Assembly (NCBI RefSeq): GCF_041321105.1
Contig: NZ_JBGGWD010000005.1
Location: 8,544 to 72,543, forward strand
Direction: 5' to 3'
Length of the DNA: 64,000 nt
Source: Fibrella musci
GTDB taxonomy: Bacteria > Bacteroidota > Bacteroidia > Cytophagales > Spirosomataceae
Shown piece by piece: positions 13,017 to 60,161 of this stretch. The notes beneath the pieces are model-generated. The model did not search any database and was not told the origin of the DNA. It was given only the letters and a program-made list of their open reading frames with translations. Each line of letters starts with the position of its first letter. Position 1 is the stretch's first letter. The translations under genes and the position numbers were made by a program.

Positions 13017-14270
13017 ATGAAAAAAAATATATTAGCAATCAAATTTTACATTTGTACAACTACAAGAGGTTATAACATGCTAGAGAGTATCTGTATCAAA
13101 AGTGGACCAAATGATAATAGAATTGACTTTGGATTTTTATGTGAGTCAATTCTATTCTACGGAAAAGTAAGAGTAATTGTAGACTATAGGCGATTAAGAT
13201 ACTTATTCGACAGAATGAGTATCAGAGGGCTTGAGAGACTTATAAAACAAGGCAGAATCGAGGTTTTTATCGCAGAAAAGCATTTAGGTGCAATGACTTT
13301 TGGCGAAAACAAAAGCGATAAAAGATATGCGTTTGAAAGTATTCAAGGTGTAAATGATAATTACATAACAGAGTTGTATAAGGCTTTTGAACTTACCACA
13401 AAAGATATCAGAAAAAGTATCAAATTGACTAATGAATTCTGCGAAATTGTTAATCCTTTTAACTACTCGTCCTCATTGATTGAGTCTCTCAATGAAGATC
13501 TTGATAACAGAGAATATATAATTAACACTATGCATAGCTACATCAGTAGCAATTATCCGGAAGTAAGTATATCACCTTTTGACATCAATATAAATTTTAC
13601 TGTACACCCAGGTGAAGATGTCAAAAAAATGGCGGGATTTTCTAAAGAAAGTATTAGTGTTGAATCTAATTTACCAATAGACAAATTCCTCGAGTTAGAT
13701 CGCCGTCGAGGGTATGCAGGAACAGATTTTTACAGCGGTTATTTTCTGTCCCTATTAGAAACTGCCGGAGATATAGATACTGCAGCCCAATATTCGAGTG
13801 AAATAGCAACTAGAGAAATTTATTCAAATATGATTCGGTTCAAAGTTGAATCTTTATATATGAAGAATAAAAAAAGCACACAAGAGCTAGATGCTTTTAA
13901 TGAATATGTGATTAAAAATTGTCATTCTGTAGCTCAAGCCATTAATAGCTATAAGTTAAGTTTCTCAAAATTCATGAAAATTTTAGATACATCGGACAGA
14001 TTTAAAGGATGGTTAACTGAAAGTAATGATGATATTGGGTTAGTGGCAGAATATTACAAAGCCCTTAGTACAGACAACAGTATGTTTAGCAGCTTTCCAT
14101 TAAAACATATGAAGTTCATTTTTTTTGCGGCTGCAGGATTCTTTTTGACACCGATTCAAGGTATTGCATTAGGTGGGCTAGATTCCTTCTTCGTTGATAA
14201 GATAAAAAACGGCTGGAAACCCAATCAATTTGTTGACAATCAATTAAAGCCTAGTTTGCCGAAGAAATAA
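13017..14270 (+). CDS. Novel AT-rich cargo protein (417 aa) with a C-terminal hydrophobic segment
   Basis: Codon usage is very AT-rich compared with the flanks. No known motif. The tail FIFFAAAGFFLTPIQGIALGGLDSFFV is TM-like. An alternative start lies at M20. Confidence 0.5.
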   Translation: MKKNILAIKFYICTTTRGYNMLESICIKSGPNDNRIDFGFLCESILFYGKVRVIVDYRRLRYLFDRMSIRGLERLIKQGRIEVFIAEKHLGAMTFGENKSDKRYAFESIQGVNDNYITELYKAFELTTKDIRKSIKLTNEFCEIVNPFNYSSSLIESLNEDLDNREYIINTMHSYISSNYPEVSISPFDININFTVHPGEDVKKMAGFSKESISVESNLPIDKFLELDRRRGYAGTDFYSGYFLSLLETAGDIDTAAQYSSEIATREIYSNMIRFKVESLYMKNKKSTQELDAFNEYVIKNCHSVAQAINSYKLSFSKFMKILDTSDRFKGWLTESNDDIGLVAEYYKALSTDNSMFSSFPLKHMKFIFFAAAGFFLTPIQGIALGGLDSFFVDKIKNGWKPNQFVDNQLKPSLPKK

Positions 14271-14457
14271 AACAGTCTATGCCCAATTACCTTTACTTAT
14301 TTATTGATCCGTGAATAATTCTGTAAAGTAATCTACTGGTGGGCATAGGCAAATCATTCACAAACACATGAATAGCCAAGATTGACTTTACGAACTTATT
14401 CACGAGTCAACACCATTTTTTTATTTCCACTTTATTTATATCAATTGACATAATACT

Positions 14458-15537
14458 CTATATACCATTGAGAGAATTATTTATTTTCTCTTCTTGTTGG
14501 CCATCCCAAATATCATGTGATGAGCTATTTTCATCTCGTGAAATTGATAATAGGTTTTCCAAGTCTTTTGCACGAGTATATTGTTTATATTTGTCGTTTG
14601 GGGAAAAACGCAAGCTATAAAAATTAAATCGTAAAGCATATTTACTAAATTTTGTTATTGAGGCTTTGCCACCAAATGCTAGCATTAATTTTATTGTTTT
14701 ATCTGACAATTCGATTAAATCTGAGTTATTCACAAAAAGGCGAAATTGCTTCTTAAGCGGAAAGCCATTAGTGATTATACTACCTTGTTTCTGAAAATTA
14801 ACGCCTTTGTTATCATTTGTAAAATTGAGGCCAGTATCTTTTGCAATATTCTCAAATTCACCCAACGATGTAGTCAAGTTAATGTATATATCGCTGTCAT
14901 TTTCTCTGATACTACTGTTGAATATAGATGCTTCTAAAAGAATCTCTATCAATAGACTTTCATGCTGATCATGCATCTGGTATTGGACTACGCGTAAATA
15001 GCCTAATAATTCGGGTCGTCTAGTTTGTCTGAATAATGCCTCTACCACATAATGTGGTGCACCGATGCTCTGCCCATCCAGCCGTATTGGATATTCCTTT
15101 TTAAACTGATGAGGTTTGCTCTTACTTTCTTGTACCTCAATTAAATATACAAAATATCCATCGGTGAAATTAACAGCCGCTACTCTTATACCAACAGGCA
15201 TGTATGATATAGCTCCATGAATAAGATTGACTAATGCATCTTTTGTTTTAAGTGTAGTTGGAATAGGTGTGAGTTCACCCTTTACGACTCTGTATTTATC
15301 ATGTACTGCTACTTCAGATGGGGCACCAAATATCAATAATCCCCCTTCTGAGTTCAAGAAGGCAGTGATCGTGCGTAGAACACCATCAAAGTTAAAACCG
15401 CCATTTTTATCGGCAACAAAGCTCTTAAATTCCAAAGTGAGCGACTCTTCACGTGCCTGTGAGAAGTAATCAATCAGATCCTGACTGGTAATTTCTTCAT
15501 TCAATGATTTGCCAATATGGATTTCTGCAAATGACAT
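14458..15537 (-). CDS. AlbA_2 (Schlafen-like putative DNA-binding) domain protein with an unknown ~230-aa C-terminal domain
   Basis: N-terminal LTLEFKSF...GGLLIFG pattern typical of AlbA_2. AT-rich coding sequence. Confidence 0.55.
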   Translation of the reverse strand: MSFAEIHIGKSLNEEITSQDLIDYFSQAREESLTLEFKSFVADKNGGFNFDGVLRTITAFLNSEGGLLIFGAPSEVAVHDKYRVVKGELTPIPTTLKTKDALVNLIHGAISYMPVGIRVAAVNFTDGYFVYLIEVQESKSKPHQFKKEYPIRLDGQSIGAPHYVVEALFRQTRRPELLGYLRVVQYQMHDQHESLLIEILLEASIFNSSIRENDSDIYINLTTSLGEFENIAKDTGLNFTNDNKGVNFQKQGSIITNGFPLKKQFRLFVNNSDLIELSDKTIKLMLAFGGKASITKFSKYALRFNFYSLRFSPNDKYKQYTRAKDLENLLSISRDENSSSHDIWDGQQEEKINNSLNGI

Positions 15538-15569
15538 GGTTATATAATTTAATGTTTTTTGATAATTTG

Positions 15570-16937
15570 TTAGAGCAACGAGTCAAACGCAGCATCGACG
15601 GCACCTGACCCAAATGAATCTAGATAAATATTTGTCGTTGTCTCGTCTTTATGGCCCAGCGCCTGACCAATTACGGCGCTGGCATGACCAGCTCGCTTTA
15701 GATTAGTGGCAAATGAGTGCCTGGCTACATAAGTAGTCAATGGTGTTGCTAGGCCAATCGAGTCACTGATTGTCTTTAGATCCGTGTTTACTTGTCCCAG
15801 CACCTTGTGCAGCCGGTTCTTTACCTTATCGGCTGTTGAGTGGCTGGCTTTGTTCAGAATCGGAAAAATAAACGCATCCGGTCCGGTGTACGTCTCCCTT
15901 CGATATCGTTCAATTATGGACACAGCAGGAGCTATCAGCTTCAGCGAGAAATTACCGCCTGTCTTTTGCCGAACGTAGCTGATCCGGTAATTATCCTCTC
16001 CGGCTCGTTGTACGTCTTGCCAACGCAGTTGCGCCAGATCGACAAAGTTGATGCCGGCCACGAAGTAAGAGAACAAAAATACGTCCTTGGCCAGTTGCAT
16101 TCGCTCAGATTCCCGGCTTAGGCTGGCGTACTTGCCCGTTGGTCTAGCCGGCACTTCGTATTCTTCGACTTTGCGGATATCCTCCCGACTGACGGCCCGT
16201 TTCCTAGTCGAGGTATCGAATTTGCCGACACTAAATTTGCTTCGCTCCGCTACATTGCGGGCAAAGGGGTATTTGTCAGGCTTCATGGCCCCGTCAGCAA
16301 TGGCCCGGTTGAGCACCGTGCGCAAAACTCGAAACCGCTGGGACATGGTGTTCTCTGTATTACTTCGCTGCCGCAGGTAGGCCTCGAACTGGTTGCAAAA
16401 GGAAAGGTTCACCTGTTCAAAAGAGACGTCTGTGACTTGCTTTTGCTCGGTCAGAAACGAAGCCAGTTGTTTTTGTACATCGAGGTAGGTATCTGCCGTT
16501 CCATTGCGATGGGTAGCTCTGAGTGATTCGACCGTCTCTGTAAAGAAAGCTAGCAGTGTAGTGCGACGCGCCTGCTGCCTGCCTTCAATGGCTTTACTAA
16601 TAACCGCTGTTACATCGTGTCGCTCATCCGACTCAGTCAGCATAGCCGCTGCCTGGCTATATTTGTTTTCCCATTCGGCCAGTTTCTCGATCAGTTGAGT
16701 CCTGAATGGGGATGGATAGTTTTTTCGTATAGCCTCCCGATAGTTTGAGTGCTGGGCGTTCCAGTATTTGGGGTGCATAGTCAACCCAGTAGCAACATAT
16801 TTGGTCTTCCGGTCCTTCGTCACACGAAGCCAGAAAGGACACAGTCCTTCCTTATCCGCTTTATCCAGTCGGTACACGATCCGCACGGTGGCGCGGCCCT
16901 CTTTATGGCTGGTGGTACGTGGCATTTGATTTACCAA
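15570..16937 (-). CDS. int: Tyrosine site-specific integrase
   Basis: C-terminal catalytic region ARHSFATNLKRAGHASAVIGQALGHKDETTTNIYLD carries the R..H..R..Y signature. Confidence 0.85.
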   Translation of the reverse strand: MVNQMPRTTSHKEGRATVRIVYRLDKADKEGLCPFWLRVTKDRKTKYVATGLTMHPKYWNAQHSNYREAIRKNYPSPFRTQLIEKLAEWENKYSQAAAMLTESDERHDVTAVISKAIEGRQQARRTTLLAFFTETVESLRATHRNGTADTYLDVQKQLASFLTEQKQVTDVSFEQVNLSFCNQFEAYLRQRSNTENTMSQRFRVLRTVLNRAIADGAMKPDKYPFARNVAERSKFSVGKFDTSTRKRAVSREDIRKVEEYEVPARPTGKYASLSRESERMQLAKDVFLFSYFVAGINFVDLAQLRWQDVQRAGEDNYRISYVRQKTGGNFSLKLIAPAVSIIERYRRETYTGPDAFIFPILNKASHSTADKVKNRLHKVLGQVNTDLKTISDSIGLATPLTTYVARHSFATNLKRAGHASAVIGQALGHKDETTTNIYLDSFGSGAVDAAFDSLL

Positions 16938-17083
16938 AGCGGCTCAGGTAAAACGCTAGGTAAAACAAATATAGTAAAACAACGAGATACAGCCAGCTAC
17001 AACCAGAGCAACCGAAGTGTTTAAACTACTGCAAATCAACAATCTATATAAAATTCTGGATATAATAGAAAGTATATAGGCCC

Positions 17084-17124
17084 ATCCTTCTAAGAAGGCG
17101 GTCATAAGTTCGAATCCTATCGGG
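17084..17124 (+). repeat. Partial tRNA-Arg 3' segment (anticodon stem-loop, T-arm, acceptor 3' strand): att-like copy
   Basis: CCTTCTAAGAAGGCGGTCATAAGTTCGAATCCTATCGGGATC. Inverted copy of 17183-17228 with 2 mismatches. Confidence 0.55.
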
Positions 17125-17132
17125 ATCGCATA

Positions 17133-17178
17133 AAAAACAAAAAAGCCAGTCACCTGATTGGTTAACTGGCTGATTTTT
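17133..17178. terminator. Hairpin GCCAGT..ACTGGC flanked by A- and T-runs, at the centre of the tRNA-fragment palindrome
   Basis: AAAAAAGCCAGT-loop-ACTGGCTGATTTTT. Confidence 0.45.
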
Positions 17179-17182
17179 AGTG

Positions 17183-17262
17183 TGATCCCGATAGGATTCG
17201 AACCTATGACCGCCTTCTTAGAAGGAAGGTGCTCCCCTATTAAGCATTCATCCAAGCTGGGC
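17183..17262 (-). tRNA. tRNA-Arg(TCT)-like gene, possibly truncated or a pseudogene
   Basis: D-arm GCTT/GAGC. Anticodon stem CCTTC/GAAGG with loop CTTCTAA giving anticodon TCT. T-arm ATAGG-TTCGAAT-CCTAT. Acceptor 3' strand CGGGATC-A. I could not find a complementary 5' acceptor strand. Confidence 0.4.
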
Positions 17263-31034: not shown

Positions 31035-31089
31035 CGGCAGGGTAGCTCAATGGTAGAGCAACAGCAAAATGCAGGTTCGAATCCTGCTA
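31035..31089 (+). other. tRNA-like remnant: acceptor/D-arm and T-arm present, anticodon arm absent. A further T-arm-like fragment lies at 31010-31034.
   Basis: GGCAGGGTAGCTCAATGGTAGAGCA then directly GCAGGTTCGAATCCTGC. The 3' strand TATCAAC does not pair with the 5' end. Confidence 0.3.
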
Positions 31090-31442
31090 TCAACCTGTAA
31101 AGTTGATCCATGGATGGGAAGTCGACCGCTTCTAAAAATGGTCACTCGATAATTGGATCGGTCAGCCACGATCCGGTGGCGGTTGGGTTCGCCCGACCAC
31201 CACAGCTTAGTCAGCGCCAGCGGGCCGGTAACGCGGCTGGGGCGGGCTTGGCGGCGGTAACCGGGTTGTTGGCTGGGTACGTTGGTTCGTCAGACAGCGT
31301 TGCGTCTGATGGGGCCGGCCTCCTCGCCAACACAGGTTCCCAATGCCTCGCACCAAAGCAGTCGCCGCGTCGGCTTCCGCGTGGGCTAGGCGGGTCGCTG
31401 GCTGATCGGTTTTTTAATGAATTACCTTAAACACCATTTGCA

Positions 31443-48838: not shown

Positions 48839-50911
48839 TTAGCTTGCCACGGCGGTCGGTTCGAGCCAGCGGCCGTCTTCCCGAATCAATTCAATGAGCT
48901 CGTCGACAGCCCGGGCGGCCGATACTGATTTCTTCACCACCTGCTGCCCCCGGTACAGCGCGATCTTGTCGCGACCGATGCCCACGTACCCATAATCGGC
49001 ATCAGCCATCTCGCCGGGTCCGTTCACGATACAGCCCATGATCCCGATCTTGACGCCTTTCAGGTGGTCGGTCCGCTGCCGGATCGTGGCCGTGGTTTCC
49101 TGCAAATCGAACAGCGTACGGCCGCACGACGGGCACGAGATGTATTCGGTTTTGGTGATGCGGGTGCGGGCGGCCTGCAAAATACCAAACGCCAGCCCGT
49201 TCAACTGTTTCAGTTCGTCGAGGTCGTCGGTGCGGGTGCTACACAGAAGTACGCCATCCCCAAAGCCATCGATCAACAGCCCGCCCACGTCCGTGGCGGC
49301 GTAGAGCGGCAGGTGTTCGGCAGGTACCCCGCCGGGGTTGGGCAAGCTTGGGTAGCCGCGCTGAATCACCACGGGGAGGGTCAGTTTACGGTCGGCGAGT
49401 TCGATAAATAGCCGCCGCAGTTCGGGCATGGCGTGGGTGTTGTCGGTATGCACGATTCCCACCACGTTGCGATCCTGCCGCAACGCCTCAGCGAGTTCGT
49501 CGTTCAGGTCAAGCAACGAAAACCGCACGAAGTTGAGCCGGAAGTGCAGGCCCTGCGACTGATGGCGGGCGTGCAGGTATTCGGCGGCCGTCAGCATCGG
49601 CAACGCGTTCATCCCGTCGGCGTGGCTGCGCCAGGCGGCATAGTCGACAATCTCTTTCAGGCCGTTGGGCAGCATAAACTGCGCCGGCTTGCTACCCGTG
49701 TAGAGGTAGTCGGCGCCAAGGTCGTTCATGGCCCATTTGTCGGGGACGGGCAGGTAAAAATGGCCTACTGCTTTCAGCACGTCGGTTTCGTTGACCACCG
49801 TGTGGCTGTAGTCGGCAATGACCCTGGGTACGTTGCTGCCCCCGAAATTGGCGACCTCGCTCGTTTGCCGCCGCGTGTACTGGAACGGATCGTAGGGCAG
49901 CGGCTGGGTGAGGTCGGGAATGGCGTCGGCGGTCTGGGCGCGGTTGGTATAGCGGTCGATCAGCGCTTTGGCCACGGGCGCTTCAAATTCGGGTTCTTCC
50001 GTCAGCGACACGCGCACGGTATCGCCCAGCCCATCTTCGAGCAGCGTACCGATGCCCAGCGCTGATTTGATGCGGCCATCTTCGGCCTCGCCCGCCTCCG
50101 TCACGCCGAGGTGCAGCGGATAGGGTTTCAGGCCCTCTTCGGCCAGCCGTTGCACCAGCAGCCGGTAGGCCTGCACCATCACCTGCGGGTTGCTCGACTT
50201 CATCGACAGCACGATGTTGTAATAATTCTCAGCCTCGCAGATGCGCAGGAATTCGAGCGCCGACTCCACCATGCCAACGGGCGTGTCGCCGTAGCGGCTC
50301 AGAATCCGGTCGGACAGGGAGCCGTGGTTGGTGCCGATCCGCATGGCCGTACCGTACTCTTTGCAGATGCGCACCAACGGCAGGAATTTCTCCCGGATGC
50401 GCTCCAGTTCGGCCGCATAAGCCGCGTCGGTGTAGTCGATGTGCTCGAACCGCTTCCGGTCGGCGTAGTTGCCGGGGTTGATGCGGACTTTCTCCACCAG
50501 TCGCGCGGCCAGTTCGGCGGCGTTGGGCGTAAAATGGATGTCGGCAATAAGCGGCGTTGTGTAGCCCCGCGCCCGCAGTTCTTTCCGAATGTTATCGAGA
50601 TTCTGGGCCTCTTTCACGCTCGGCGCCGTAATGCGGATATACTCGCAGCCCGCCTCGATCATCCGGATGCTCTGCGCCACCGACCCCGCCGTATCCATGG
50701 TGTCGATGGTGGTCATCGACTGCACGCGGATGGGGTACTCCGAGCCCATAGGTACGTCGCCGATGTTGACCGTAATGGTCTGGCGGCGGCTGTACTGGGT
50801 GAGGGAAGGCGCGTAAAGGGCGGGTGAGGCCGCGGGTACGTCGTTCGAGAAAGCGTTGGTCAGAAAATCGAGCATAGAGGTGGCAATTGGGGCACCGCAT
50901 TGGGACACCAC
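48839..50911 (-). CDS. ispG: 4-hydroxy-3-methylbut-2-enyl diphosphate synthase IspG, long form with an inserted domain
   Basis: GcpE motifs including CPSCGRT and TEAGEAEDGR. Length 690 aa, as in Bacteroidetes/Chlamydia-type IspG. Confidence 0.9.
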   Translation of the reverse strand: MVSQCGAPIATSMLDFLTNAFSNDVPAASPALYAPSLTQYSRRQTITVNIGDVPMGSEYPIRVQSMTTIDTMDTAGSVAQSIRMIEAGCEYIRITAPSVKEAQNLDNIRKELRARGYTTPLIADIHFTPNAAELAARLVEKVRINPGNYADRKRFEHIDYTDAAYAAELERIREKFLPLVRICKEYGTAMRIGTNHGSLSDRILSRYGDTPVGMVESALEFLRICEAENYYNIVLSMKSSNPQVMVQAYRLLVQRLAEEGLKPYPLHLGVTEAGEAEDGRIKSALGIGTLLEDGLGDTVRVSLTEEPEFEAPVAKALIDRYTNRAQTADAIPDLTQPLPYDPFQYTRRQTSEVANFGGSNVPRVIADYSHTVVNETDVLKAVGHFYLPVPDKWAMNDLGADYLYTGSKPAQFMLPNGLKEIVDYAAWRSHADGMNALPMLTAAEYLHARHQSQGLHFRLNFVRFSLLDLNDELAEALRQDRNVVGIVHTDNTHAMPELRRLFIELADRKLTLPVVIQRGYPSLPNPGGVPAEHLPLYAATDVGGLLIDGFGDGVLLCSTRTDDLDELKQLNGLAFGILQAARTRITKTEYISCPSCGRTLFDLQETTATIRQRTDHLKGVKIGIMGCIVNGPGEMADADYGYVGIGRDKIALYRGQQVVKKSVSAARAVDELIELIREDGRWLEPTAVAS

Positions 50912-50986
50912 AAAGGTAACACAAACGCGGGCAAGCCTGTTCGCCTGGCTGCTGGCCGCGGCAGCAACGGAGCGGCAGGCAGTACG

Positions 50987-51754
50987 CTAGGCTGGATCAG
51001 CGGCATGCTTTCGACCACTAATGCCCGTGGCACAGCCATAAAAATAATCGTCGAGCTGCACCATTAACCCGTAGCGTTCAAATACCGCCCGGGCTGCTTT
51101 CGCGTTGGCAAACCGGTCGGTATACTCCCACAGCATGCGGTAATCACTGGGATTGCCCAGGAATACGTTTCCCAACAGGGGGATCATTCGTTTCAGATAA
51201 AACCGGTACAACCAGAGCAACAGCTTGTTGGGTGGCTTCGAAATCTCGATAAACGAAAACTGGCCTTGTGGCTTCAGAATCCGGCTCGTGGTTTTTGCCA
51301 GGGCCTCCAACTGCGCGCCATTGAACGTTTTGAGGCCAAACGCACAGACAACCACATCAAACTCGCCGGACGACAGGTCACTGGCTAAAATGTCCTGATT
51401 CAGGACGGTGAATCGGCTGTTGAATTGCTGTTCATTTTTCTGACTGCTTACCCGGTGCATTTCTTCCGAAAAATCCAATGCCGTGAAGGTAGCCCTCGGG
51501 TACCGATCGAGCAGAAGCGCCCAGTTTTCACCCAGACCCGATAGCAGGTCGATTACCCGAATGGGGCGCTCATCTGTCGGCAACCGGCGAATGAACTGGT
51601 TGCGCCAGCGTATCGAAAACCCAAACGACGTGATGAAATTCATGCGCTCATACGAGCCCGACATGCGGTTGAACAGGCGCTTCACGTAAGCAGGTTCGTA
51701 GATATTATCGCAGCTATTACCATTGATATCGTCCATGTACAAAAATGAATGCAA
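50987..51754 (-). CDS. Class I SAM-dependent methyltransferase (UbiE/MenG-like)
   Basis: VIDLLSGLGEN motif I and a DVVVCAFGL region. Confidence 0.65.
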   Translation of the reverse strand: MHSFLYMDDINGNSCDNIYEPAYVKRLFNRMSGSYERMNFITSFGFSIRWRNQFIRRLPTDERPIRVIDLLSGLGENWALLLDRYPRATFTALDFSEEMHRVSSQKNEQQFNSRFTVLNQDILASDLSSGEFDVVVCAFGLKTFNGAQLEALAKTTSRILKPQGQFSFIEISKPPNKLLLWLYRFYLKRMIPLLGNVFLGNPSDYRMLWEYTDRFANAKAARAVFERYGLMVQLDDYFYGCATGISGRKHAADPA

Positions 51755-51815
51755 CGAAATTGATTAACAAGCTACGTTAGTAGTTACCTGACGATCGCTC
51801 GTCAGCGCATATGGC

Positions 51816-52190
51816 TTATGCGTCAGGGCCTGTTTTGATCACGAACGCATTTAGCTCGACCATCTTACCCTCGTGAAAACGCCAGACATCGCAGTAGGCG
51901 TACCGGACCGGCTGCCCGTCCTCGTCCTTCATGATGATGTCGCCAAGGGCCGTTAGAAAATCGCCCTCGGCGATCATGTTCGTGACCGTGAAGTTGGGCG
52001 GCTCGTGGTTTGTCGTCTCGAGGTAGTGGCGCACGGCGTCCTTGCCCCTAAGGGTTGTTTCGCCGACGTAGGTCCATTCCGTATCGTCGGAGCAGAACGC
52101 CAGAAACCCGTCCAAATCGCCTTTGGCGATAGCGGCGTTCGCCTTTTCTAAGATCGTTTTGTTGTCTTCTGCCATGGCATTGTCACCCAT
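51816..52190 (-). CDS. NTF2-like/SnoaL-like small protein
   Basis: Size and a ...WRFHEGKMVELNAF... pattern. Confidence 0.5.
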   Translation of the reverse strand: MGDNAMAEDNKTILEKANAAIAKGDLDGFLAFCSDDTEWTYVGETTLRGKDAVRHYLETTNHEPPNFTVTNMIAEGDFLTALGDIIMKDEDGQPVRYAYCDVWRFHEGKMVELNAFVIKTGPDA

Positions 52191-52370
52191 TACAAGCCAT
52201 TTCTGGCTTTTCTGAGGTAACGCGTTGACGCGGGGTCTGGTTATTCAACCTACCTAACTGGCCGGGCTGCACTGTCGGCCCGAACCCGGCAACGACGCAA
52301 CAGGCTGTCTTCCGAACCGGCTCATTCGGTAAGAGGGCTGGCCATTATTTCAGCCGGAGACCAACCGACG

Positions 52371-53234
52371 TCAGTGACTGGCTTCGGTGGTTTTGCGTTC
52401 GTTGAAAAAGTCCAGCGCGATCTGGCAAAGCCGCTCACTATGCTGCTCCGGCATGTCGTGGCCTGTGTTCGGGTAGATACACAGTTGGCCTTGTTTCAGC
52501 GAGCGAAATAAGTCGATGCTATGTTCTAACCGGATCATGTCCCGATCGCCGCGAATGAGGAGCACCGGCACCGCAATGCTGACCAGCTTCGCGTCGGGCA
52601 CTTTGCTTTCCCTTGCCCACATTTTTTGGTTGTCTTCCCAGAATTTGACCCATTTCTCGGGTTGGGGATTCAGCCGCTGATAGTGGTTGAGCCAGTCTTT
52701 GTCTTCTTTTACCGCTTCGACGGTGTATTCATTCAACAGGTCACGCCCTTCCTGCGTTAGCCCGCTGGCTTTCGAGTTGGATGCCCCGCTGACCACTTTT
52801 TTCACTTTGTCGGGCCGGTTGGCCGCCAGTAACAGGGCCGTGTTGCCGCCCATGCTCCACCCCATCACGTAGACACTGTCCAGTTGCAGCTTGTCAATCA
52901 GGGCAGAGCCGTATTCGGCCAACAGGTCGCCGCTCAGACTGTCGGCCTGCTCGGAGCGGCCATGTCCGGGTGCATCGGGTGCGATGACCCGGAAGTGCTT
53001 CGACAGTTCCGGAATAAGGGAGCTGACCGTTTCGATGGAACCGAGGCCCTGATGAAGCAGCAACAACGGCGTTCCGCTGCCGTATTCCTCGTAGTACAGC
53101 TTCGTGCCGTGGAGGGTCAGGTACGTTCCGTGGTTGGAACCGTATTGACTAGTTTTTGCCGCCTCGTCTGTATGCGTACAGGCCGCCAGCAGGAGACTTA
53201 GCAGCAGGCAGTAAGCGATCGGTTTTATGTCCAT
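52371..53234 (-). CDS. Alpha/beta hydrolase, lipoprotein
   Basis: LLLAAC lipobox, GWSMGG nucleophile elbow, HG oxyanion motif. Confidence 0.75.
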   Translation of the reverse strand: MDIKPIAYCLLLSLLLAACTHTDEAAKTSQYGSNHGTYLTLHGTKLYYEEYGSGTPLLLLHQGLGSIETVSSLIPELSKHFRVIAPDAPGHGRSEQADSLSGDLLAEYGSALIDKLQLDSVYVMGWSMGGNTALLLAANRPDKVKKVVSGASNSKASGLTQEGRDLLNEYTVEAVKEDKDWLNHYQRLNPQPEKWVKFWEDNQKMWARESKVPDAKLVSIAVPVLLIRGDRDMIRLEHSIDLFRSLKQGQLCIYPNTGHDMPEQHSERLCQIALDFFNERKTTEASH

Positions 53235-53410
53235 TCGTTGGCCAAACAGGCATGGTGGTCTCCTAATCGGAGATGCCTGTTGGGGGTAACGAGTACCGCC
53301 TGTGGTGAATGGTTGTAACGAGCCGTGTTTTATTCGTTTAACACCGACGGCATTGCTGGCAGGCGAGCAACGTCACTGGACACACGTACCTGAACCGTAA
53401 CACCCCCTTT

Positions 53411-53439
53411 GGTTGGCTGAGCACTTGACGTTGAGACGT
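53411..53439. repeat. Island-flanking repeat copy 1: GGTTGGCTGAGCACTTGACGTTGAGACGT
   Basis: About 85% identical to 56243-56271. Both lie in GC-rich spacers that flank AT-rich cassettes. Confidence 0.45.
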
Positions 53440-53490
53440 ACTTCCTGCCGCCCGCCTACGTACAGTAAGGCAAGCTCATGGAGTTAGGCC

Positions 53491-53754
53491 TCAAATCACG
53501 TTTTGTCTGGCGTTGAGTTCTTTCTTTATGGCTTTTAAATTGCTCCAGTTTAAAAACAGAATGGGCATCAACGCAAACGGAATTACCCCCAGCCCCATGC
53601 TCGTTGCATCAAGTCCTTTTTTGCGGGCCAACAGTACGACCATAACGAGCAGGGCCGAAAGCGCACCAGCCAGCATACCCGTTGCGAGTTCTGTTGTTTT
53701 TTTGTGTTTAAGCAATGCTTCATTGCTCATCTCTTCAATTTTTTGACTTTTCAT
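53491..53754 (-). CDS. Small two-TM membrane protein (87 aa)
   Basis: Two hydrophobic helices. AT-rich coding. Confidence 0.4.
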   Translation of the reverse strand: MKSQKIEEMSNEALLKHKKTTELATGMLAGALSALLVMVVLLARKKGLDATSMGLGVIPFALMPILFLNWSNLKAIKKELNARQNVI

Positions 53755-54202
53755 ACAACCGATTTAGTATTAAGAAAACGGAACTTCAGTGAGAGCATTT
53801 ATTCTTTCGCTGAGCCGGGGATAGATACACCTTTTCATTGCTTATTATGTTTGCAAAACGCTCCAGGGGGCTGATGGAGGCCACGACTTAGCCCAAACCA
53901 CCTCAACGCCTTCGCTACCTTTTCACAATCAGTTTTGTTGCGCCCTCCAATGTAGCTTTCCTCATGTGATTCTTGTCTACCACTACGTGGACAGCAGAGC
54001 TAATCGACGACGCACGGCATCTGCTTGGGGTACGTTCCTAACCAAAACGACGGGCGTTTTGTGCCGTTGCGAGCGCAAAGCTAGGTACGTTGCTGGCCCA
54101 TGTTTGGCTTGTCGGCGGGCCGTTGAAACCACCGCTACCTCGTACAATACAGAATAGTTGTATGATAAAAAAACGTGTCTTTCGTCAACGACCAAATGTA
54201 AC

Positions 54203-54709
54203 CTAAACTCTTGTGCATGAAAATTTGATGTTCAACTGTTTTATGAAATCGAAATCATTAATCCATTTAATATCAAGATTATCGCACACATTTGGGATTT
54301 TAATCTTCGTTGAATTTGCGGCTGTAACTTTCTCTTCTTTTGTAACCACGATAGCCTGCTCATTCATAGCATGAGCAATCACCCAAGGATCAGCAAGAGA
54401 CCTACCTTTTTTATTATCAACTAGTTGTTGATGCAATGGATTTGAGCTGTAAATTGATCTAAGGCAAGTTATTACAGACGAATTTGTTTTTCGAACAGGT
54501 ATTCGGCTTGTTTTCAGCCATTCAGAAAGGTCATCCTCTGTATTTACTATCTCGTCAAAAACCTGTTCAGCAATAAAAATTCGACCGCTACTACCCAAGC
54601 TTATTAATATATCCCAATATCCGGGACAAAACGTTGGTGAGTAATATTTTTGCCATGCTTCAATGAGTACATTAGCATCCAAGCAATAACTTTCTCCTGA
54701 TGTACTCAT
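54203..54709 (-). CDS. DUF4411 family PIN-like protein, the putative toxin/effector of the module
   Basis: CLDANVLIEAW N-terminus, ADPWVIAHA and KIPNVCD motifs. AT-rich. Confidence 0.6.
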   Translation of the reverse strand: MSTSGESYCLDANVLIEAWQKYYSPTFCPGYWDILISLGSSGRIFIAEQVFDEIVNTEDDLSEWLKTSRIPVRKTNSSVITCLRSIYSSNPLHQQLVDNKKGRSLADPWVIAHAMNEQAIVVTKEEKVTAANSTKIKIPNVCDNLDIKWINDFDFIKQLNIKFSCTRV

Positions 54710-55887
54710 TTGTATAGTTGTGCTTCTAATTTTTGGAATTTGTTAACGTGAACATTGAGCAAACTGCTAGCCAAAGTGGGTTCAATCCGACCTCCACGAA
54801 AGGCATCAAGAACTGTTTGAGTGAACAGTCTGCTATTCCTGTTTAGCTGAAGAAGGTAATAGTCAGGTCCTCCACTACTATTCTTTTGTCTAGCTTTTCT
54901 TTCCTCCTCACGCTTGATAAACTCCTTAAAAGCTGTATCAGCTTGTGTTCTAAGCTTTGAGTAGGTGGGTGCAGAAATAATGCTAAGATTTAAAGCTCTA
55001 ACAATCATAGCTACTGAACTTACTCCTAGCGACCTCGAAGCTTGAAAAACATTGTTATAGTCTTGTAATTTTTGAGGGCCAATACTTTGAAGTATCTCTT
55101 TTGGCATCAAGGCGTTAGCGGCTACCTCGTTACAGAAAAGCTCAACCGGATGAAACTTATCTCTGTCTTTCTGAACAATATCTATTGCATTCGATACACC
55201 AGTTGCTGCAATCCAGATGTGGGCTAACTCATGAACAAAAGTAAAAAGTTGCGGTGCGTTCCAATCATCAGAATTAATAAAAACGAATGGAGCAAAAGGA
55301 TCAGCAATAGCAAATCCCTGTAACTCATCTGAATCTAATTTAAGCCTAGAATGTATGAAACTAGTTCTAGAAACAAATACGCCATTAACCTCAGCAGAAC
55401 CAATCCACTCTTTAATGGGATTGTTAGTTTTGTAGCTGCTTGGATTAATTTTTAGAGTTTCAAGAATGTCTTTTGCAACTTTTGCAGGGTCGGAGTTTAA
55501 TGTAAAGCGTCCGACAAAAGGTAATTTGGCGTCGCCATTTTCAGCATGTAGATCACTCAACCAAGCTTGCTTTTGTTGTATCTCCCGAATTATAAAAACA
55601 GATGATGTAGTTAGTGGTTTAGAGCCTGGCTTCCTAAAATCTTGTAATGGCTGGAAATCCCTAGGTATGTCAGGTAGAAAAAATAAAGCAAATGGCCTCT
55701 TGTAGTGCTTTGCTAATTCTTGGGCTTGCCTAATTGTGGGCTGATCTACGCCATCTTCCCATGATTGCAGTTTTTCAACAGACACGGAGATTTTAGCAGC
55801 AGCAATTTCTTCGGACATACGTGCCGATTCTCTTGCCCATTTTAGTATAATAGGTGTTATAAAAGCTTCGTCAGCCATCGCTAGCAA
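54706..55887 (-). CDS. XRE-type HTH fused to an ImmA/IrrE (COG2856) zinc metallopeptidase
   Basis: N-terminal HTH-like segment. HELAHIW (HExxH) in the C-terminal half. Overlaps the DUF4411 gene by 4 bp. Confidence 0.7.
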   Translation of the reverse strand: MLAMADEAFITPIILKWARESARMSEEIAAAKISVSVEKLQSWEDGVDQPTIRQAQELAKHYKRPFALFFLPDIPRDFQPLQDFRKPGSKPLTTSSVFIIREIQQKQAWLSDLHAENGDAKLPFVGRFTLNSDPAKVAKDILETLKINPSSYKTNNPIKEWIGSAEVNGVFVSRTSFIHSRLKLDSDELQGFAIADPFAPFVFINSDDWNAPQLFTFVHELAHIWIAATGVSNAIDIVQKDRDKFHPVELFCNEVAANALMPKEILQSIGPQKLQDYNNVFQASRSLGVSSVAMIVRALNLSIISAPTYSKLRTQADTAFKEFIKREEERKARQKNSSGGPDYYLLQLNRNSRLFTQTVLDAFRGGRIEPTLASSLLNVHVNKFQKLEAQLYK

Positions 55888-56242
55888 ATCTATATATAGC
55901 CTTCTATATAATCATTATCGTAACGAAAAAAAGATAAAATTCATTACTATACAGTTGCTTATTCGTTCTGTCGCAGGTAGTTGGGGCAAATCACCGCCTC
56001 CGCAACGTGCTTAACCCAGGTGATTCGTGTCGGCGGGGACGTGTCTAGGCCGGGGTTCGCTCACGAGTGGCTGGCAAATAGCCGCAACGTGCTGTTTTAC
56101 AGAATATTCCTGTCCGCCGAGACGTGCTTACGCCGTGACGCGTACGCCTTACACGGACAAGCAGCAACCCCCCTGAGTGTTGATGGATGAGGGCGCTACA
56201 TGCCTGAACAATCGAAACTTGCAACCTTTACACACTCATTAT

Positions 56243-56271
56243 GTTGGGCTGAACACTTGCCTTTGAGACGT
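56243..56271. repeat. Island-flanking repeat copy 2: GTTGGGCTGAACACTTGCCTTTGAGACGT
   Basis: Imperfect direct repeat of 53411-53439. Confidence 0.45.
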
Positions 56272-56466
56272 GCGGCCTGTCGACGGAGAGCTGCCCCGGC
56301 GCAGAGCGAACAACAACGTACCCAATCCAATTCTGTACTGACGGCGAAGCTAGTTAACTAACCTTCTTCTATACCGAGACTATATGTCTAAACGCGCTGC
56401 CTGTCGCCAGCGAATAGCAAAGGAGAAAAGTACAAGTCGACAATATTAAATTTTGAAACACAGATA

Positions 56467-57057
56467 TTATTTGTCTGGCCTTCTTCTCCTTTTTTTAGAC
56501 AATATACTTTTTAGAAGTTGCTCTTCTTCTGGAGTGAGTTCATCTTCAGAATAATCAACACCTTCAGCAGTACTAGTGTGATTTTTACTGGATTCACCTT
56601 CAGAAGTATCAATATCAGGACTATTTAATAATTTTGGCTCAGGGGCCATTAATTTTCTTGGGCTGTATGTTGAATGTTGTTCAAACTCAGGCAAAATCGC
56701 ACCAGCTAAAATAAAATCATTAGCTCCTGTAAAAATATTTCTTCTTAAAATTTCAGCTTGCTCCCTTCCTATTTTCTCCTCTTTTTCAAGAGTATTGATA
56801 TTTTCAATGACTGGTAAAGCTTTAGTAATCAGATCTATGCGTTCGTGAAGTTTCTTTTCTCTATAAAATATTACTCTATCCCAAAGTCCTATAATTAATT
56901 CCTTTAACGAGGTAACTACTTTTGCCGCGCCTAAAAAGTCAAAAGATTTATCGCTGCCTGAATCGATAGCTACAACGCTTAAGTCGTTTTCATTGTGTCC
57001 TAAAATTTGCGCTATAGTTTCATAAAAGAGATTAACACTACTAAGGGCTTTTATCAA
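56467..57057 (-). CDS. Hypothetical protein (196 aa) with an acidic, Lys/Arg-rich tail
   Basis: AT-rich ORF. C-terminus ...EEEQLLKSILSKKRRRRPDK. No known motif. Confidence 0.4.
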   Translation of the reverse strand: MIKALSSVNLFYETIAQILGHNENDLSVVAIDSGSDKSFDFLGAAKVVTSLKELIIGLWDRVIFYREKKLHERIDLITKALPVIENINTLEKEEKIGREQAEILRRNIFTGANDFILAGAILPEFEQHSTYSPRKLMAPEPKLLNSPDIDTSEGESSKNHTSTAEGVDYSEDELTPEEEQLLKSILSKKRRRRPDK

Positions 57058-57183
57058 ACGTTCAGGATGTGATGCTTCTTTATTTTCTTCAGGAAGAATA
57101 ATTGTAATAATTTCTTGATTATCATATGGGTTGTAGTCAACAGATACTTGGTTGTTAGTGCGTTGTATATAATCAACATTATC

Positions 57184-57543
57184 TTATTTTAACAGATCAG
57201 GTAGTTTATCTAAATAATCCCTGATGAACGTTAACCCTCTATAATATTTAATATAAACCTCCCTGGAAGTGCCATTATCACCAGCTAAAATTCGTGTCCA
57301 TATCTTAGTACTTTCAATACCGTCTAACCCGAAAATTGATAGAATTTCTTTGTCAGTTTTGTCGAAATTACGGTAGTAATTAGAGAACGTCTGAAACGCT
57401 TCAACTGCAATCTCTGGATTAGCTTTCTTATCAGAAGAAGAAGACGGTGAAACGACATGTTGAAAAACACTAACGACTCCTGAGTCTATAATGGCTTTTT
57501 TTAATTTCATTATAGAGTTAATAATGTCAATTCTTCTCATCAA
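57184..57543 (-). CDS. Hypothetical protein (119 aa)
   Basis: AT-rich ORF, 126 bp upstream of and on the same strand as the 196-aa ORF. Confidence 0.4.
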   Translation of the reverse strand: MMRRIDIINSIMKLKKAIIDSGVVSVFQHVVSPSSSSDKKANPEIAVEAFQTFSNYYRNFDKTDKEILSIFGLDGIESTKIWTRILAGDNGTSREVYIKYYRGLTFIRDYLDKLPDLLK

Positions 57544-58029
57544 ATTTTATCTATAAGTGGAATTAATCAGTAAATGATCAAAGTCTATAAAGACTGAAAA
57601 TGTAAGTTAGTTCTTTTTTCAAAAACTTTCTAATTGAATGCCACATACCTAATAGACGTGCTTTAACCTTATCGGGGCGGTCAGCTACCATCCTAGACTC
57701 TGGAATGTAAACCTCAACTTACCCAACGATCACATTCCCATGTCGCCCGAAACCCAGAAATGAAAGCCCCAGAGCTGCCCCTGTCGGGACGTGCAACTTG
57801 TCGCACGAGGCATGCATCTCACGCTTTTTATTCTTGTCTGGCGCACCCAACATAGTATTGGACGCAAAACTGCGGAACTATTCCCATTGATAATCAGACG
57901 ATTCTAGTTCCGCAACTACATTTTCTTGTGTTGATTCGGTCAAAGGCGTTTACAAATACGAAAATAGATTGGTTATGTCCAATGGCCGTTGCGGATTTTT
58001 TCTGGACGGTATTCCGGCTGGGTCCATTT

Positions 58030-58962
58030 TCATCGGAACAGTACGATCAGGGCGGCGCCGATGACCATGATGGTGGCGCCGATTAGTTTAGGCAATAGCT
58101 GGCGTTCGCCGAAAAACTGGTAGCCAAACAGTACACTCACGACCGCCGACGTCTGGAAGAGTGCCAGTGCGTAGCCTACCTGCATGCCACTGAAGGCCAC
58201 CGTAGTCGATAGTTGCATCAGGCCCACCAGGGCAATCAGGGCCAGGTAGCTCATGCGTTGGCGGGCCAGCAGTCGGCATTGGGCGGCTATCGTCGAGCGG
58301 TGCAGGCTGCCGTACCAGCCCCACGACAACACGCTGCCCAGCACGCACCAGACCACAAACACGGTGGTGGCATCGGCCAGCAGCACGGCCCTTTTGATAT
58401 ACACCGCCTCAATGGCCGAGCAGATCAGCGCCAACACGCGCCACCGGATTTCGGGTTGCCCCATCAGCCGCCAGCCGCCACCGCCCGCGCCGCGATTGGG
58501 TTGCAGCACGAAGTAGCTCCCCAGCACAATTAGCCCCACGCCCAGCAGGCCCGCCACGCTCGGCACTTCGCCCAGCAGCACGGCCCCCACCACCATACTG
58601 ACGACGGCCTTGTAGGCGTTGATCGGCCCCAGCACCGACAAATCGCCCGTCTGCAAGGCTTTAACCAGCAGCGTATTGCCCAGCACGGCTAATACGCCCA
58701 TCAGCAGCGCGTTGGTCCAGAAGTCGAGGCTCAGGTGCCGGGCGGTTTCCCAGCGATAGACGAACAGGCAGGCGATGAACAACCCGGTGTAGGTCACCGC
58801 CGTCACGAACAGCGGATCGGCGGATTGGTGCGTGAGCTTCTTCTGAAAAACGTTGGCCAGCGGATTGGCCAGAATCCGAACCAGCAGAGCCAGGGAGGTT
58901 ATCGTACCAACGAAGAGCAGCATGGGCCGGGCAGATTGGGTAAAGCAAGCAGCAATGGGCAA
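58030..58962 (-). CDS. DMT superfamily (EamA-like) transporter
   Basis: Ten predicted TM helices in a duplicated five-helix arrangement. Confidence 0.7.
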   Translation of the reverse strand: MPIAACFTQSARPMLLFVGTITSLALLVRILANPLANVFQKKLTHQSADPLFVTAVTYTGLFIACLFVYRWETARHLSLDFWTNALLMGVLAVLGNTLLVKALQTGDLSVLGPINAYKAVVSMVVGAVLLGEVPSVAGLLGVGLIVLGSYFVLQPNRGAGGGGWRLMGQPEIRWRVLALICSAIEAVYIKRAVLLADATTVFVVWCVLGSVLSWGWYGSLHRSTIAAQCRLLARQRMSYLALIALVGLMQLSTTVAFSGMQVGYALALFQTSAVVSVLFGYQFFGERQLLPKLIGATIMVIGAALIVLFR

Positions 58963-58988
58963 AGGAGCCGGCGGGGTTGGTGGGCGGG

Positions 58989-60161
58989 TTAGTCGGTGGT
59001 CAGGGTCGTCCCGTCGGCTACGCGCACTACATAAGCCTTCCCCCCTACCCGGTCAATCGCCTCGGCAACGGCCTCGGCCCCGTTGGGCGCGTAGACGAAC
59101 ATGGATCCGCCGCCACCTGAGCCGTTGATTTTGCCACCCAGTGCCCCCGCCGCCAGGGCCGCGTCGAGCATCCGGTCGATTTTAGGCGTCGAAATGCGCT
59201 GGGCATCGCGGAGGTTGGTCTGGTGCTCGGTCAGCAACGTACCCAGTTGCCGATCAAACGCCGGTACGTTGGTGGGGGGCGTCTGCAACTGCGTGTGGGC
59301 CTGCCGCAGCAGGTCGCGGTTGGCGAGGGTGCCTTTCAGCAGGATGTACTCGTCTTTCGTGAGCTGGTCTTTGAACTCAGGTACGTCGGTAAGGGCGGCC
59401 GTGTGCAGCGAGAAGTCGGGGCGGCTTTGTTGGATGCGCTGCACCACGTCGAGCATCCCGAGTTTAACCCGCCGCAGAATGCCGATGGTATCTTTTGGCT
59501 CCCCGGAATCGCCCAGCACGAAGGTGCCGAGTGGGGGCGTCAGGGCTTCCAGGGCGATGGCGGGCGTGCCGTCGGGTCGTTGCGATTCGAGGTAAATCAC
59601 GTTGCCCACGGCGGTGGCGAAGTGGTCCATCATACCGCCCGGTTCGCCAAATTCGAGCACTTCGGCGCGGTAGGCCAGTTCGGCCAGGGTCATGGGCGGC
59701 AGGTGGCGGGGCGCATCGGCCAGTTGACTCAGCACATTCAGCCAGCTCACAATCAGGGCCGACGAACTCGACGCCCCGGCGTTGATCGGGATGGTGCCGC
59801 GTACGGTCGCTTCGATGCCTCGACTAAAGGTGAACCCCTCCTGCAACAGCACATTCACGCACGACCGCAGGTAATCCCGGTCGGCCGGGTACGGCAGGCG
59901 ATTCCCGTCGAACGGAATGATCACATCCTGACCGATGTCGGGCAGATGCAGACGGAACTCGCGGGCATTGGGGTCAGGGCGGGCGGTGAGGGCAACGCGG
60001 CGGTCGATGGCGGCGGCAATGACTGGCAGGCCCAGGTAATCGAGGTGTTCGCCAAATAGACAAATGCGGCCGGGCGTCGAGGCAGTGAGGTTCGTTGTTA
60101 ACACGCAGAAACAAGCGGGAAGGTGTAGGAGGTCGTTGGCGGTTGGGCCAGACAGGGTCAA
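58989..60161 (-). CDS. GHMP family sugar kinase (galactokinase-like)
   Basis: ICLFGEHLDY, NAGASSSSALIVS (PxGSGLGSSAA-type), and C-terminal GGKINGSGGGGSMF. Confidence 0.7.
   Translation of the reverse strand: MTLSGPTANDLLHLPACFCVLTTNLTASTPGRICLFGEHLDYLGLPVIAAAIDRRVALTARPDPNAREFRLHLPDIGQDVIIPFDGNRLPYPADRDYLRSCVNVLLQEGFTFSRGIEATVRGTIPINAGASSSSALIVSWLNVLSQLADAPRHLPPMTLAELAYRAEVLEFGEPGGMMDHFATAVGNVIYLESQRPDGTPAIALEALTPPLGTFVLGDSGEPKDTIGILRRVKLGMLDVVQRIQQSRPDFSLHTAALTDVPEFKDQLTKDEYILLKGTLANRDLLRQAHTQLQTPPTNVPAFDRQLGTLLTEHQTNLRDAQRISTPKIDRMLDAALAAGALGGKINGSGGGGSMFVYAPNGAEAVAEAIDRVGGKAYVVRVADGTTLTTD

Follow-up and report, generated by a model that had tools for sequence, protein, structure and literature searches.

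We analyzed a 64,000-nt stretch of DNA (hereafter the window) from Fibrella sp. WM1 (F. musci), a member of the Spirosomataceae in the phylum Bacteroidota, and uncovered at positions 53331–57887 a minus-strand array of three gene cassettes headed by a leader, a description that replaces the single cassette proposed in an initial annotation of this DNA. In reading order, the leader is followed by a gene for a 357-aa protein (cassette 1), a two-gene operon coding for a helix-turn-helix (HTH) protein with an ImmA-type peptidase domain and a DUF4411 protein (cassette 2) and a gene for an 87-aa protein (cassette 3); each of these low-GC genes or operons would form a cassette together with its own copy of a ~130-nt element located on its 3′ side. 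The island is foreign low-GC DNA: its genes at 54203–57543 display a GC content of 0.33–0.39 and a GC content at third codon positions (GC3) of 0.22–0.30, against a GC3 of 0.64–0.81 in the neighboring ordinary genes and a GC content of 0.54 for the whole window. Every island gene is encoded on the minus strand, and the intergenic spacers, with a GC content of 0.45–0.58, contain no credible open reading frame (ORF). These values bear out two claims of the initial annotation, namely that the island is foreign and that its GC-rich spacers are non-coding. The coordinates of the individual features are collected in Table 1.

Table 1. Features of the cassette array, in reading order (positions in the window)
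Feature	Position	Strand	Remarks
Array leader, ~180–195 nt	57693..57887	-	homologous to the starts of the Spirosoma arrays
Cassette 1 gene, 357-aa protein with in-frame TAA	56467..57543	-	ORFs 57184-57543 and 56467-57057, in one frame
Element copy eC, after the 357-aa gene	56155..56287	-	115.7 bits, E=3.5e-24 (covariance model)
Boxes of eC	R″ GCCCAAC 56249-56243; core GTTG 56168-56165	-	the copy eC holds the right-hand 29-bp repeat
Putative AT-rich promoter region of the ImmA-DUF4411 operon, GC 0.27	55879..55960	-	TAGATTTG a few bases before the ATG
HTH (Xre-type) + M78 zinc-peptidase (ImmA/IrrE) protein, 390 aa	54706..55878	-	Pfam HTH_3, Peptidase_M78; HELAH motif
DUF4411 PIN-like protein, 168 aa	54203..54709	-	Pfam PF14367, E=2.4e-43
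Element copy eB, after DUF4411	53848..53983	-	93.3 bits, E=2.9e-19 (covariance model)
Boxes of eB	R″-like GCGCAAC 53943-53937; core region 53859-53856	-	
Cassette 3 gene, 87-aa protein	53491..53754	-	ORF; two hydrophobic segments (hydropathy), no cysteine, GC3 0.49
Element copy eA, after the 87-aa gene	53331..53455	-	96.2 bits, E=6.8e-20 (covariance model)
Core of eA, GTTAAAC	53342-53336	-	the copy eA holds the left-hand 29-bp repeat and is the terminal, most degenerate copy
Partial GACAGG/CACGT box copies	55991..56037, 56366-56411, 57761-57808	-	weak covariance-model matches, 8.2, 12.1 and 13.1 bits

The initial annotation had noted an imperfect 29-bp direct repeat and had taken the ~2.8 kb between its two copies, with the gene for the small membrane protein and the toxin–antitoxin (TA) pair, to be an island inserted once, the repeats being att-type duplications. 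The repeat is real: identity amounts to 85% over 20 nt, 75% over 51 nt and 69% over 103 nt, and the local alignment of the two spacers scores 29 against 10.4 (SD 1.4) for dinucleotide shuffles (z=13.7), none of 500 of which reaches 29. The 29 bp, however, are merely the R″-box end of eA and eC, within an element that actually extends over ~130 nt. The spacer between the 87-aa gene and the DUF4411 gene (spacer B) is related to the one downstream of the 357-aa gene (spacer C; z=6.9 in a shuffle-tested alignment) and contains eB, a third copy that had gone unnoticed, as had the leader and the fact that the ORFs 57184–57543 and 56467–57057 are one split gene. Together, the three element copies and the leader define three units of ~1.7, 2.3 and 0.5 kb in place of one of ~2.8 kb. 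Bracketing direct repeats of significant similarity are what a single insertion would leave, but eB sits between the very genes that would have traveled together; the copies on the two sides share only ~62% identity, and their similarity to copies from Spirosoma is no lower; the 87-aa gene is absent from all of the 81 other ImmA–DUF4411 loci; and the low-GC 357-aa gene beyond the right-hand repeat belongs to the same leader-bearing array. We consider such a one-off event very improbable: the repeats are tied to a cassette-like insertion, but not to a single two-repeat cassette of 2.8 kb. Nor does the DNA fit an integrase-borne island framed by att repeats, given the absence of an integrase and a tRNA and the presence of three copies with a leader.

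The three window copies were detected with a covariance model purpose-built for the element, rather than the one of IntegronFinder, and the same layout is shared by four independent loci—the window, the metagenome contig L081, Spirosoma arboris HMF4905 and Spirosoma telluris HMF3257. L081 carries the same operon as cassette 2 (89% amino acid and 84% DNA identity), and the flank downstream of its DUF4411 gene is akin to spacer B (z=13.2) as well as to spacer C (z=6.4); a first impression that the unit shared with the window comprises only the genes and their promoter was overturned by the element in this flank. In S. arboris, two copies lie within a provirus call, one after a 193-aa gene and the other after a trypsin-like gene; this locus was the one real find among the mostly chance matches of a first 16-mer scan of viral contigs followed by a profile filter. 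In S. telluris, three copies respectively follow a 126-aa gene, a gene with a weak HEPN_AbiU2 match and a gene for a 241-aa membrane protein. These were recovered by a second pattern scan, one of four later and more specific patterns, the other three of which yielded no new arrays among the viral contigs, and they score 96 and 85 bits with a model (R1) built without them. Thus, the cassette architecture exists and recurs in four independent loci. Among the copies, eC is 70% identical to the S. arboris copy v1 and only 49–62% identical to its neighbors in the window, while eB is 56% identical to the post-DUF4411 copy of L081, i.e., as similar to it as to any other copy. Since the copies are no more alike within an array than between genomes, they are not local duplications; these identities show each copy to have come with its gene from a shared pool.

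Two peculiarities of individual copies may be recorded here. Between the DUF4411 stop codon and eB lie ~220 nt of GC-rich non-coding DNA (53984–54202), where L081 has 25 nt, and the segment 54056–54119 therein gives only a very weak match to the covariance model. In S. telluris (L290 2772–2843), one copy is split between R″ and L″ by an AT-rich insertion of ~80 nt with a small palindrome (AAGTTAAAAACCTTG...), which may be a secondary insertion into the site.

An interrupted copy of this kind, together with the non-coding and imperfectly palindromic nature of the element, its high GC content relative to the cargo and its occurrence in several related genomes, is also what one would expect of a selfish short repeat of the miniature inverted-repeat transposable element (MITE) or repetitive extragenic palindrome (REP) type that accumulated in a permissive non-coding hotspot, unrelated to the arrival of the genes. 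Yet the copies occur only in arrays, always on the strand of the gene and always 3′ of a low-GC gene. No dispersed copy was found in ~2 Mb of other DNA of the family (~1.5 Mb of Spirosomataceae loci and 0.55 Mb of ImmA–DUF4411 loci), nor is there a comparable element in the other 59 kb of the window, and Rfam gave no match at the gathering threshold and none in 53200–58100 at E<=1. Terminal inverted repeats and target-site duplications were not noticed at the ends of the copies, with no dedicated test run for them, and the copy after DUF4411 is common to two contexts of the same operon, the window and L081. A selfish repeat therefore appears to us an improbable explanation.

Read in the orientation of the gene, the element contains, in order, a YGACAGG-N2-6-SCAYGTC box, which is followed after ~15–25 nt by GCCCAAC (R″), a 3–6-nt spacer and the L″ box of 6–8 nt within a conserved TGAGnGTGTAAAGGTT; after another ~50 nt come CCATCA and the L′ box, a 4–6-nt spacer and the GTTGGGT(G) core. 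The RYYYAAC box is exact in 7 of the 9 copies and GTTRRRY in 5 of them, with the S. telluris copies carrying both. The k-mers ACGTRC and CCTGTCG showed a modest enrichment until they were resolved into the box motif, the strict YGACAGG-N2-6-SCAYGTC pattern of which occurs only inside these arrays among 3.3 Mb of DNA. In the nine-copy alignment, 84% of the cells pair, a share that drops to 31–49% when the partners are slid; compensatory changes occur in five pairs, of which four belong to the seven of the L helix, and only 2 of 500 shuffles reach the observed pairing. The same R and L stems are independently predicted by RNAalifold. Further, the geometry of boxes, spacers and stems, as well as the way in which they are oriented with respect to the gene, agrees with what has been published on the attC sites of integrons (PMC7370490, PMC5027507). 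The spacers were initially suspected to be classical attC hairpins, a notion not borne out by their folding energies, which are no better than those of shuffles.

The leader combines a “leader-left” of ~35 nt (ATAGTT..TTTTGCGTCC..CTATG), the core GTTGGGT (57851–57845) and a post-core region with GACAGG/GCACGTC boxes; it appears ~180 nt downstream of the stop codon of a gene for an EamA protein as ...TTTTGCGTCCAATACTATGTTGGGTG..., to which the boxes are appended. Homologous sequences (nhmmer, E=1e-45) start the arrays of S. telluris (L290 1040–1232; pairwise score 38, shuffles 11±1.4) and S. arboris (L285 2077–2261; score 29), and the leader-left and core are also found in L081 at 95–137. The post-core part of the leader is built of 2–4 tandem units of 45–57 nt, each with a TTTCGG-YGACA..GAACGCCCC-type box, and these units (L290 1100–1320; L285 2110–2275; window 57700–57810) resemble iterons. 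In the Spirosoma arrays, the ~150-nt post-core sequence is repeated behind every internal element but is missing behind the final one, so these arrays begin and end at the core; in S. telluris the conserved flank is reached within ~55 nt beyond the last core. In the window, eA ends in GTTAAAC, ~100 nt before the native hydrolase gene, and the partial box copies correspond to the direct-repeat family D1. The box remnants at the internal junctions, along with the nonsense codon in cassette 1 and the degenerate state of eA, suggest an old, decaying array.

Conservation that runs ~150 nt past the core and consists of tandem boxed units brings to mind a regulatory rather than a recombinational role, in which the leader and post-core region would be a shared promoter and operator, the boxes repressor sites and the element a shared 3′ end or terminator, such that these moron-like shells would have their genes swapped by homologous recombination in phages and hotspots. 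Such a role would sit well with the fact that prophage-like DNA contains or adjoins two of the four arrays, the unremarkable folding energies of the element and the lack of an integrase next to any array, and each unit could possess its own promoter, as does the TA operon of cassette 2. Still, no T-run follows the stems, and the compensatory stem changes and the RYYYAAC/GTTRRRY boxes are not predicted by a terminator model. Moreover, the Spirosoma arrays stop exactly at the last core, all the arrays start with a core after the conserved 35 nt, and the internal junctions in Fibrella lack the shared post-core region yet retain the element. We accordingly deem exchange between regulatory shells unlikely, albeit an explanation that retains appreciable weight.

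What we favor, at roughly even odds (a probability of ~0.5), is that the array was assembled by site-specific recombination at the core, in the manner of an integron, with the recombinase acting in trans; perhaps about half of this weight goes to a genuine IntI/attC system. Mechanistically, we infer that the cassettes would have entered the array successively through site-specific recombination at the GTTGGGT-type core, with the recombinase being encoded elsewhere, and that the array would resemble an integron array that lost its integrase (CALIN); accessory binding might take place at the repeated GACAGG boxes. Three co-oriented copies within 3 kb, each 3′ of a minus-strand gene, fit the multi-site definition of a CALIN, the spacers of 3–6 nt are short as in attC sites and the center of ~50 nt falls within the attC central range of 14–102 nt. 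A series of observations weighs in the opposite direction. At the level of the site, only one of the three window copies has an exact RYYYAAC (eC) and one an exact GTTRRRY (eA); the shuffle control on six copies was not significant, and the nine-copy alignment was fitted to the model; single-strand DNA folding is no better than that of shuffles (z from -1.1 to +2.2); and the consensus folding energy is only -5 kcal/mol. At the level of the array, the ~150 nt after the core and the box before R″ are conserved between cassettes, unlike in canonical attC sites; of the post-core region, the internal junctions in the window retain no more than weak remnants of boxes; and the gene-to-element distances (25–270 nt) and those between a core and the following start codon (100–330 nt) are greater than is usual in integron cassettes. 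As for a recombinase, the one in the window scores 39.8 bits against a cut-off of 265 with the integron integrase model TIGR02249, and no integrase adjoins any of the four arrays, with none within ±10 kb in S. telluris.

Comparison with known systems brings out both sides of this kinship. Like the CALINs and attC sites (IntegronFinder 2.0, PMC9024848; PMC7370490; PMC5027507), the arrays have all their cassettes pointing the same way and, behind each gene, an imperfect palindrome comprising an RYYYAAC-type box, short spacers, L″/L′ stems, a ~50-nt center and a GTTRRRY-type core; their first site, like an attI, has nothing but the core in common with the others; and their cargo is of unknown function, TA-like or defense-like, with no adjacent integrase. 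In contrast to attC sites, the hairpins are weak, long non-coding stretches occur inside the cassettes and no IntI lies beside the arrays; the conservation of 35 nt before R″ and of ~150 nt after the core is closer to an attP with arm-type sites. The host phylum, too, sets them apart, as it has almost no reported integrons: in Bacteroidetes, IntegronFinder 2.0 recorded only integrase-only elements and one complete integron, that of Salinibacter ruber (PMC9024848). The stockpiling of small defense or TA genes as cassettes in a compact defense island recalls the BRiCs (Kieffer et al. preprint 10.1101/2024.07.02.601719); those, however, belong to genuine integrons of Proteobacteria, either class 1 or chromosomal, whose IntI is functional, whereas the platform here is uncharacterized and partly phage-borne. 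Finally, repeated junctions, variable hotspots that include prophage-like DNA and low-GC cargo are shared with tandem integrative elements and phage morons, but the present units are devoid of an integrase, have attC-like junctions and display a shared leader at unrelated locations. Drawing these strands together, we tentatively propose, short of even odds, that an integron-like system of gene capture, not described before, exists in the Spirosomataceae and their prophages, in which cassettes are stacked at a conserved leader via the GTTGGGT core by a recombinase encoded elsewhere. Under this proposal, the composite site would be an attC-like two-stem palindrome flanked by iterated, arm-type-like GACAGG/GCACGTC boxes, and many of the cassettes would be defense or TA genes.

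The surroundings of the Spirosoma arrays are consistent with variable sites. The S. telluris array sits between conserved flanks that hold other cargo in related genomes, namely a PIN_8 gene in S. foliorum and an unrelated 431-aa gene in S. arboris. An IS5 transposase closes the contig that carries the S. arboris array. A SEFIR/TIR-domain gene (L304 4242–4832) is likewise present in the phage-like DNA surrounding the S. telluris array, and the PIN_8 protein is encoded at the equivalent hotspot of S. foliorum (L295 4513–5793). This points to the S. telluris/S. foliorum site being a defense-gene hotspot.

As the initial annotation had recognized, cassette 2 has a TA-like architecture of HTH-ImmA and DUF4411 genes, which the Pfam matches and the ATGA overlap joining the two genes confirm; through this overlap, the DUF4411 gene is translationally coupled to the upstream gene. 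The ORF of the latter spans 54706–55887, with the ATG at 55878 as the likely start, the same as in the NCBI protein, and its 390-aa product is 100% identical to a deposited protein of Fibrella sp. WM1. Look-ups by exact sequence returned no entry for four proteins of the window or for P0001. Its HTH_3 (residues 15–67) and Peptidase_M78 (residues 194–297) domains, matches to the PADLOC RmrA models with E-values down to 3.3e-17, a match to PHROG 2439 (E=4e-59) and a full-length alignment to chain A of PDB 9vzy (E=1.5e-33), wherein HELAH lies opposite HEFVH, mark it as a putative antitoxin and regulator of the RmrA type. The DUF4411 protein covers all of the PF14367 profile (positions 1–159 of 159; 148.1 bits against a cut-off of 23.5), matches PHROG 11126 (E=9e-43) and aligns with chain D of 9vzy and with 9vzz (E=8.5e-12); at four positions, in LDANV, FDEIV, LADPWV and NVCD, its acidic residues are matched by acidic ones in 9vzy_D, and four acidic residues are characteristic of the DUF4411 family (PMC5499597). 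It is thus a putative nuclease toxin, which matches none of the PADLOC RmrT models at E<=0.1. The putative operon promoter is conserved in L081 as part of a 1708-bp stretch of 84% identity (window 54240–55946); the assignment relies on the Bacteroidetes -7 consensus.

Genes of this kind have been described before: DUF4411.1 PIN-like proteins encoded downstream of fused HTH-DUF955 genes were reported as a TA system (Matelska et al. 2017, PMC5499597), HTH-ImmA (M78, COG2856) antitoxins with variable toxins are known as RosmerTA (Millman et al. 2022 preprint 10.1101/2022.05.11.491447; Ernits et al. 2023, PMC10440598), and ImmA-type antitoxins paired with PIN-like domains were noted with NetFlax. 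The window pair agrees exactly with the first in gene order and domain content. With RosmerTA it shares a two-gene operon with an upstream Xre-type HTH and M78 protein with HEXXH and a small putative toxin downstream, but its DUF4411 partner departs from the RmrT models. Relative to 9vzy, a complex of an HTH and a DUF4411 protein, both chains align and the HEXXH and acidic PIN residues are conserved, although the window pair is a divergent member of this and the DUF4411.1 group. By its sequence, cassette 2 qualifies as an intact member of the HTH-M78 (ImmA/RmrA) + DUF4411 family, and as such the TA pair is an ordinary addition to a family that has already been described and whose structure has been solved. 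Judging from its homology to the 9vzy complex, the 390-aa protein would bind and neutralize the PIN-like nuclease and would probably also act as a repressor of its own promoter; this control may be lifted upon phage infection or under some other stress, via the peptidase domain or antitoxin turnover, and the freed nuclease could then cause growth arrest or abortive infection.

The family is large, with 2329 matches at E<=1e-10 and identities of 70–74% across the Bacteroidota and beyond. Of 80 metagenome loci, 78 retain the pair, as does L081, with contig L140 coding for the ImmA protein with no detectable DUF4411 gene downstream; in these loci (L082–L161) the operon shows 66–73% amino acid identity and a GC content of 0.29–0.44. 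The steadiness of the latter despite flanks that range from 0.27 to 0.57 in GC indicates frequent transfer. A scan of viral contigs for close ImmA relatives found none.

The gene of cassette 1 is interrupted by a single stop, the TAA at 57184–57186, in an otherwise continuous reading frame. Its homologs are single proteins of 340–365 aa, which cover up to 100% of the read-through product, and the TAA aligns with a conserved Gln in the “DLLKQD” of the homolog P0122 (55% identity). The gene has been inactivated by this nonsense codon, for which a single CAA>TAA transition is the likely origin; a 196-aa fragment of the split gene is deposited as a hypothetical protein. The 357-aa protein has no match in Pfam, PADLOC or NCBIfam, and an AlphaFold model of its family (pLDDT 79.6) gave no significant fold match in the PDB. 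In Spirosoma sp. BT702, the homologous gene is part of a prophage-like element, where it is flanked by genes for an S24 repressor and an integrase. The 87-aa protein of cassette 3 has no Pfam match; it is named “redox-active disulfide protein 2” in NCBI and UniRef though it is cysteine-free, a label that looks like a mis-annotation.

On the larger scale, the island lies in the 8 kb between a galactokinase-like GHMP kinase gene (58989–60161) and ispG (48839–50911), an interval that also codes for the EamA protein, an alpha/beta hydrolase, a SnoaL-like protein and a UbiE-like methyltransferase. In 16 of 80 fetched loci of relatives, the GHMP kinase gene and ispG are adjacent, with a gap of 0.1–1.4 kb; these belong to several genera of the Spirosomataceae and related families, including Nibrella, Larkinella, Dyadobacter, Rhabdobacter and Arcicella. 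With 8 kb here against adjacent genes there, the whole GHMP kinase–ispG interval is therefore lineage-specific. The expectation that relatives would show an empty site is thereby upheld in part: the region is lacking in them according to a family-level synteny comparison, in which the closest GHMP kinase match has 70% amino acid identity. Searches of the island and its spacers against the 80 related loci by blastn and tblastx returned no matches. The EamA, hydrolase, SnoaL and UbiE-like genes, which are of native GC (window 50911–58989), likewise have homologs in none of the 80 loci.

The island had been described as free of an integrase, and Pfam, Rfam and tRNA searches indeed detected no integrase, tRNA or tmRNA in it; the sole tyrosine recombinase of the window (15570–16937) is ~36 kb away. 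The latter is part of another low-GC island (13017–17245), which is a conventional integrative element: the 455-aa tyrosine-type integrase combines Arm-DNA-bind_5, SAM_5 and Phage_integrase domains, its gene is adjoined by a truncated tRNA match (17191–17245; Rfam positions 10–63 of 71, no tRNA by ARAGORN), and the island further codes for a 417-aa protein of unknown function (GC3 0.29) and a 359-aa Schlafen AlbA_2 protein. Kinship of the 359-aa gene with the 357-aa gene of cassette 1 was considered, and the two proved unrelated. A second weak match to the tRNA model at 31041–31092 (30.4 bits; 52 nt that span the whole model), not called by ARAGORN, may be a tRNA-like remnant.

The wider interest of this locus lies in the packaging of the cassettes, not in the TA pair. 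If the shells turn out to be only regulatory, they would offer a tidy case of modular moron exchange, a much less surprising outcome. If, on the other hand, the cassettes are captured by site-specific recombination, integron-type stockpiling of genes would extend to a new phylum and to prophage hotspots and would employ a type of recombination site that stands between attC and attP; the models of the leader and of the element would then provide a sequence handle for harvesting uncharacterized defense cassettes in the Cytophagales.

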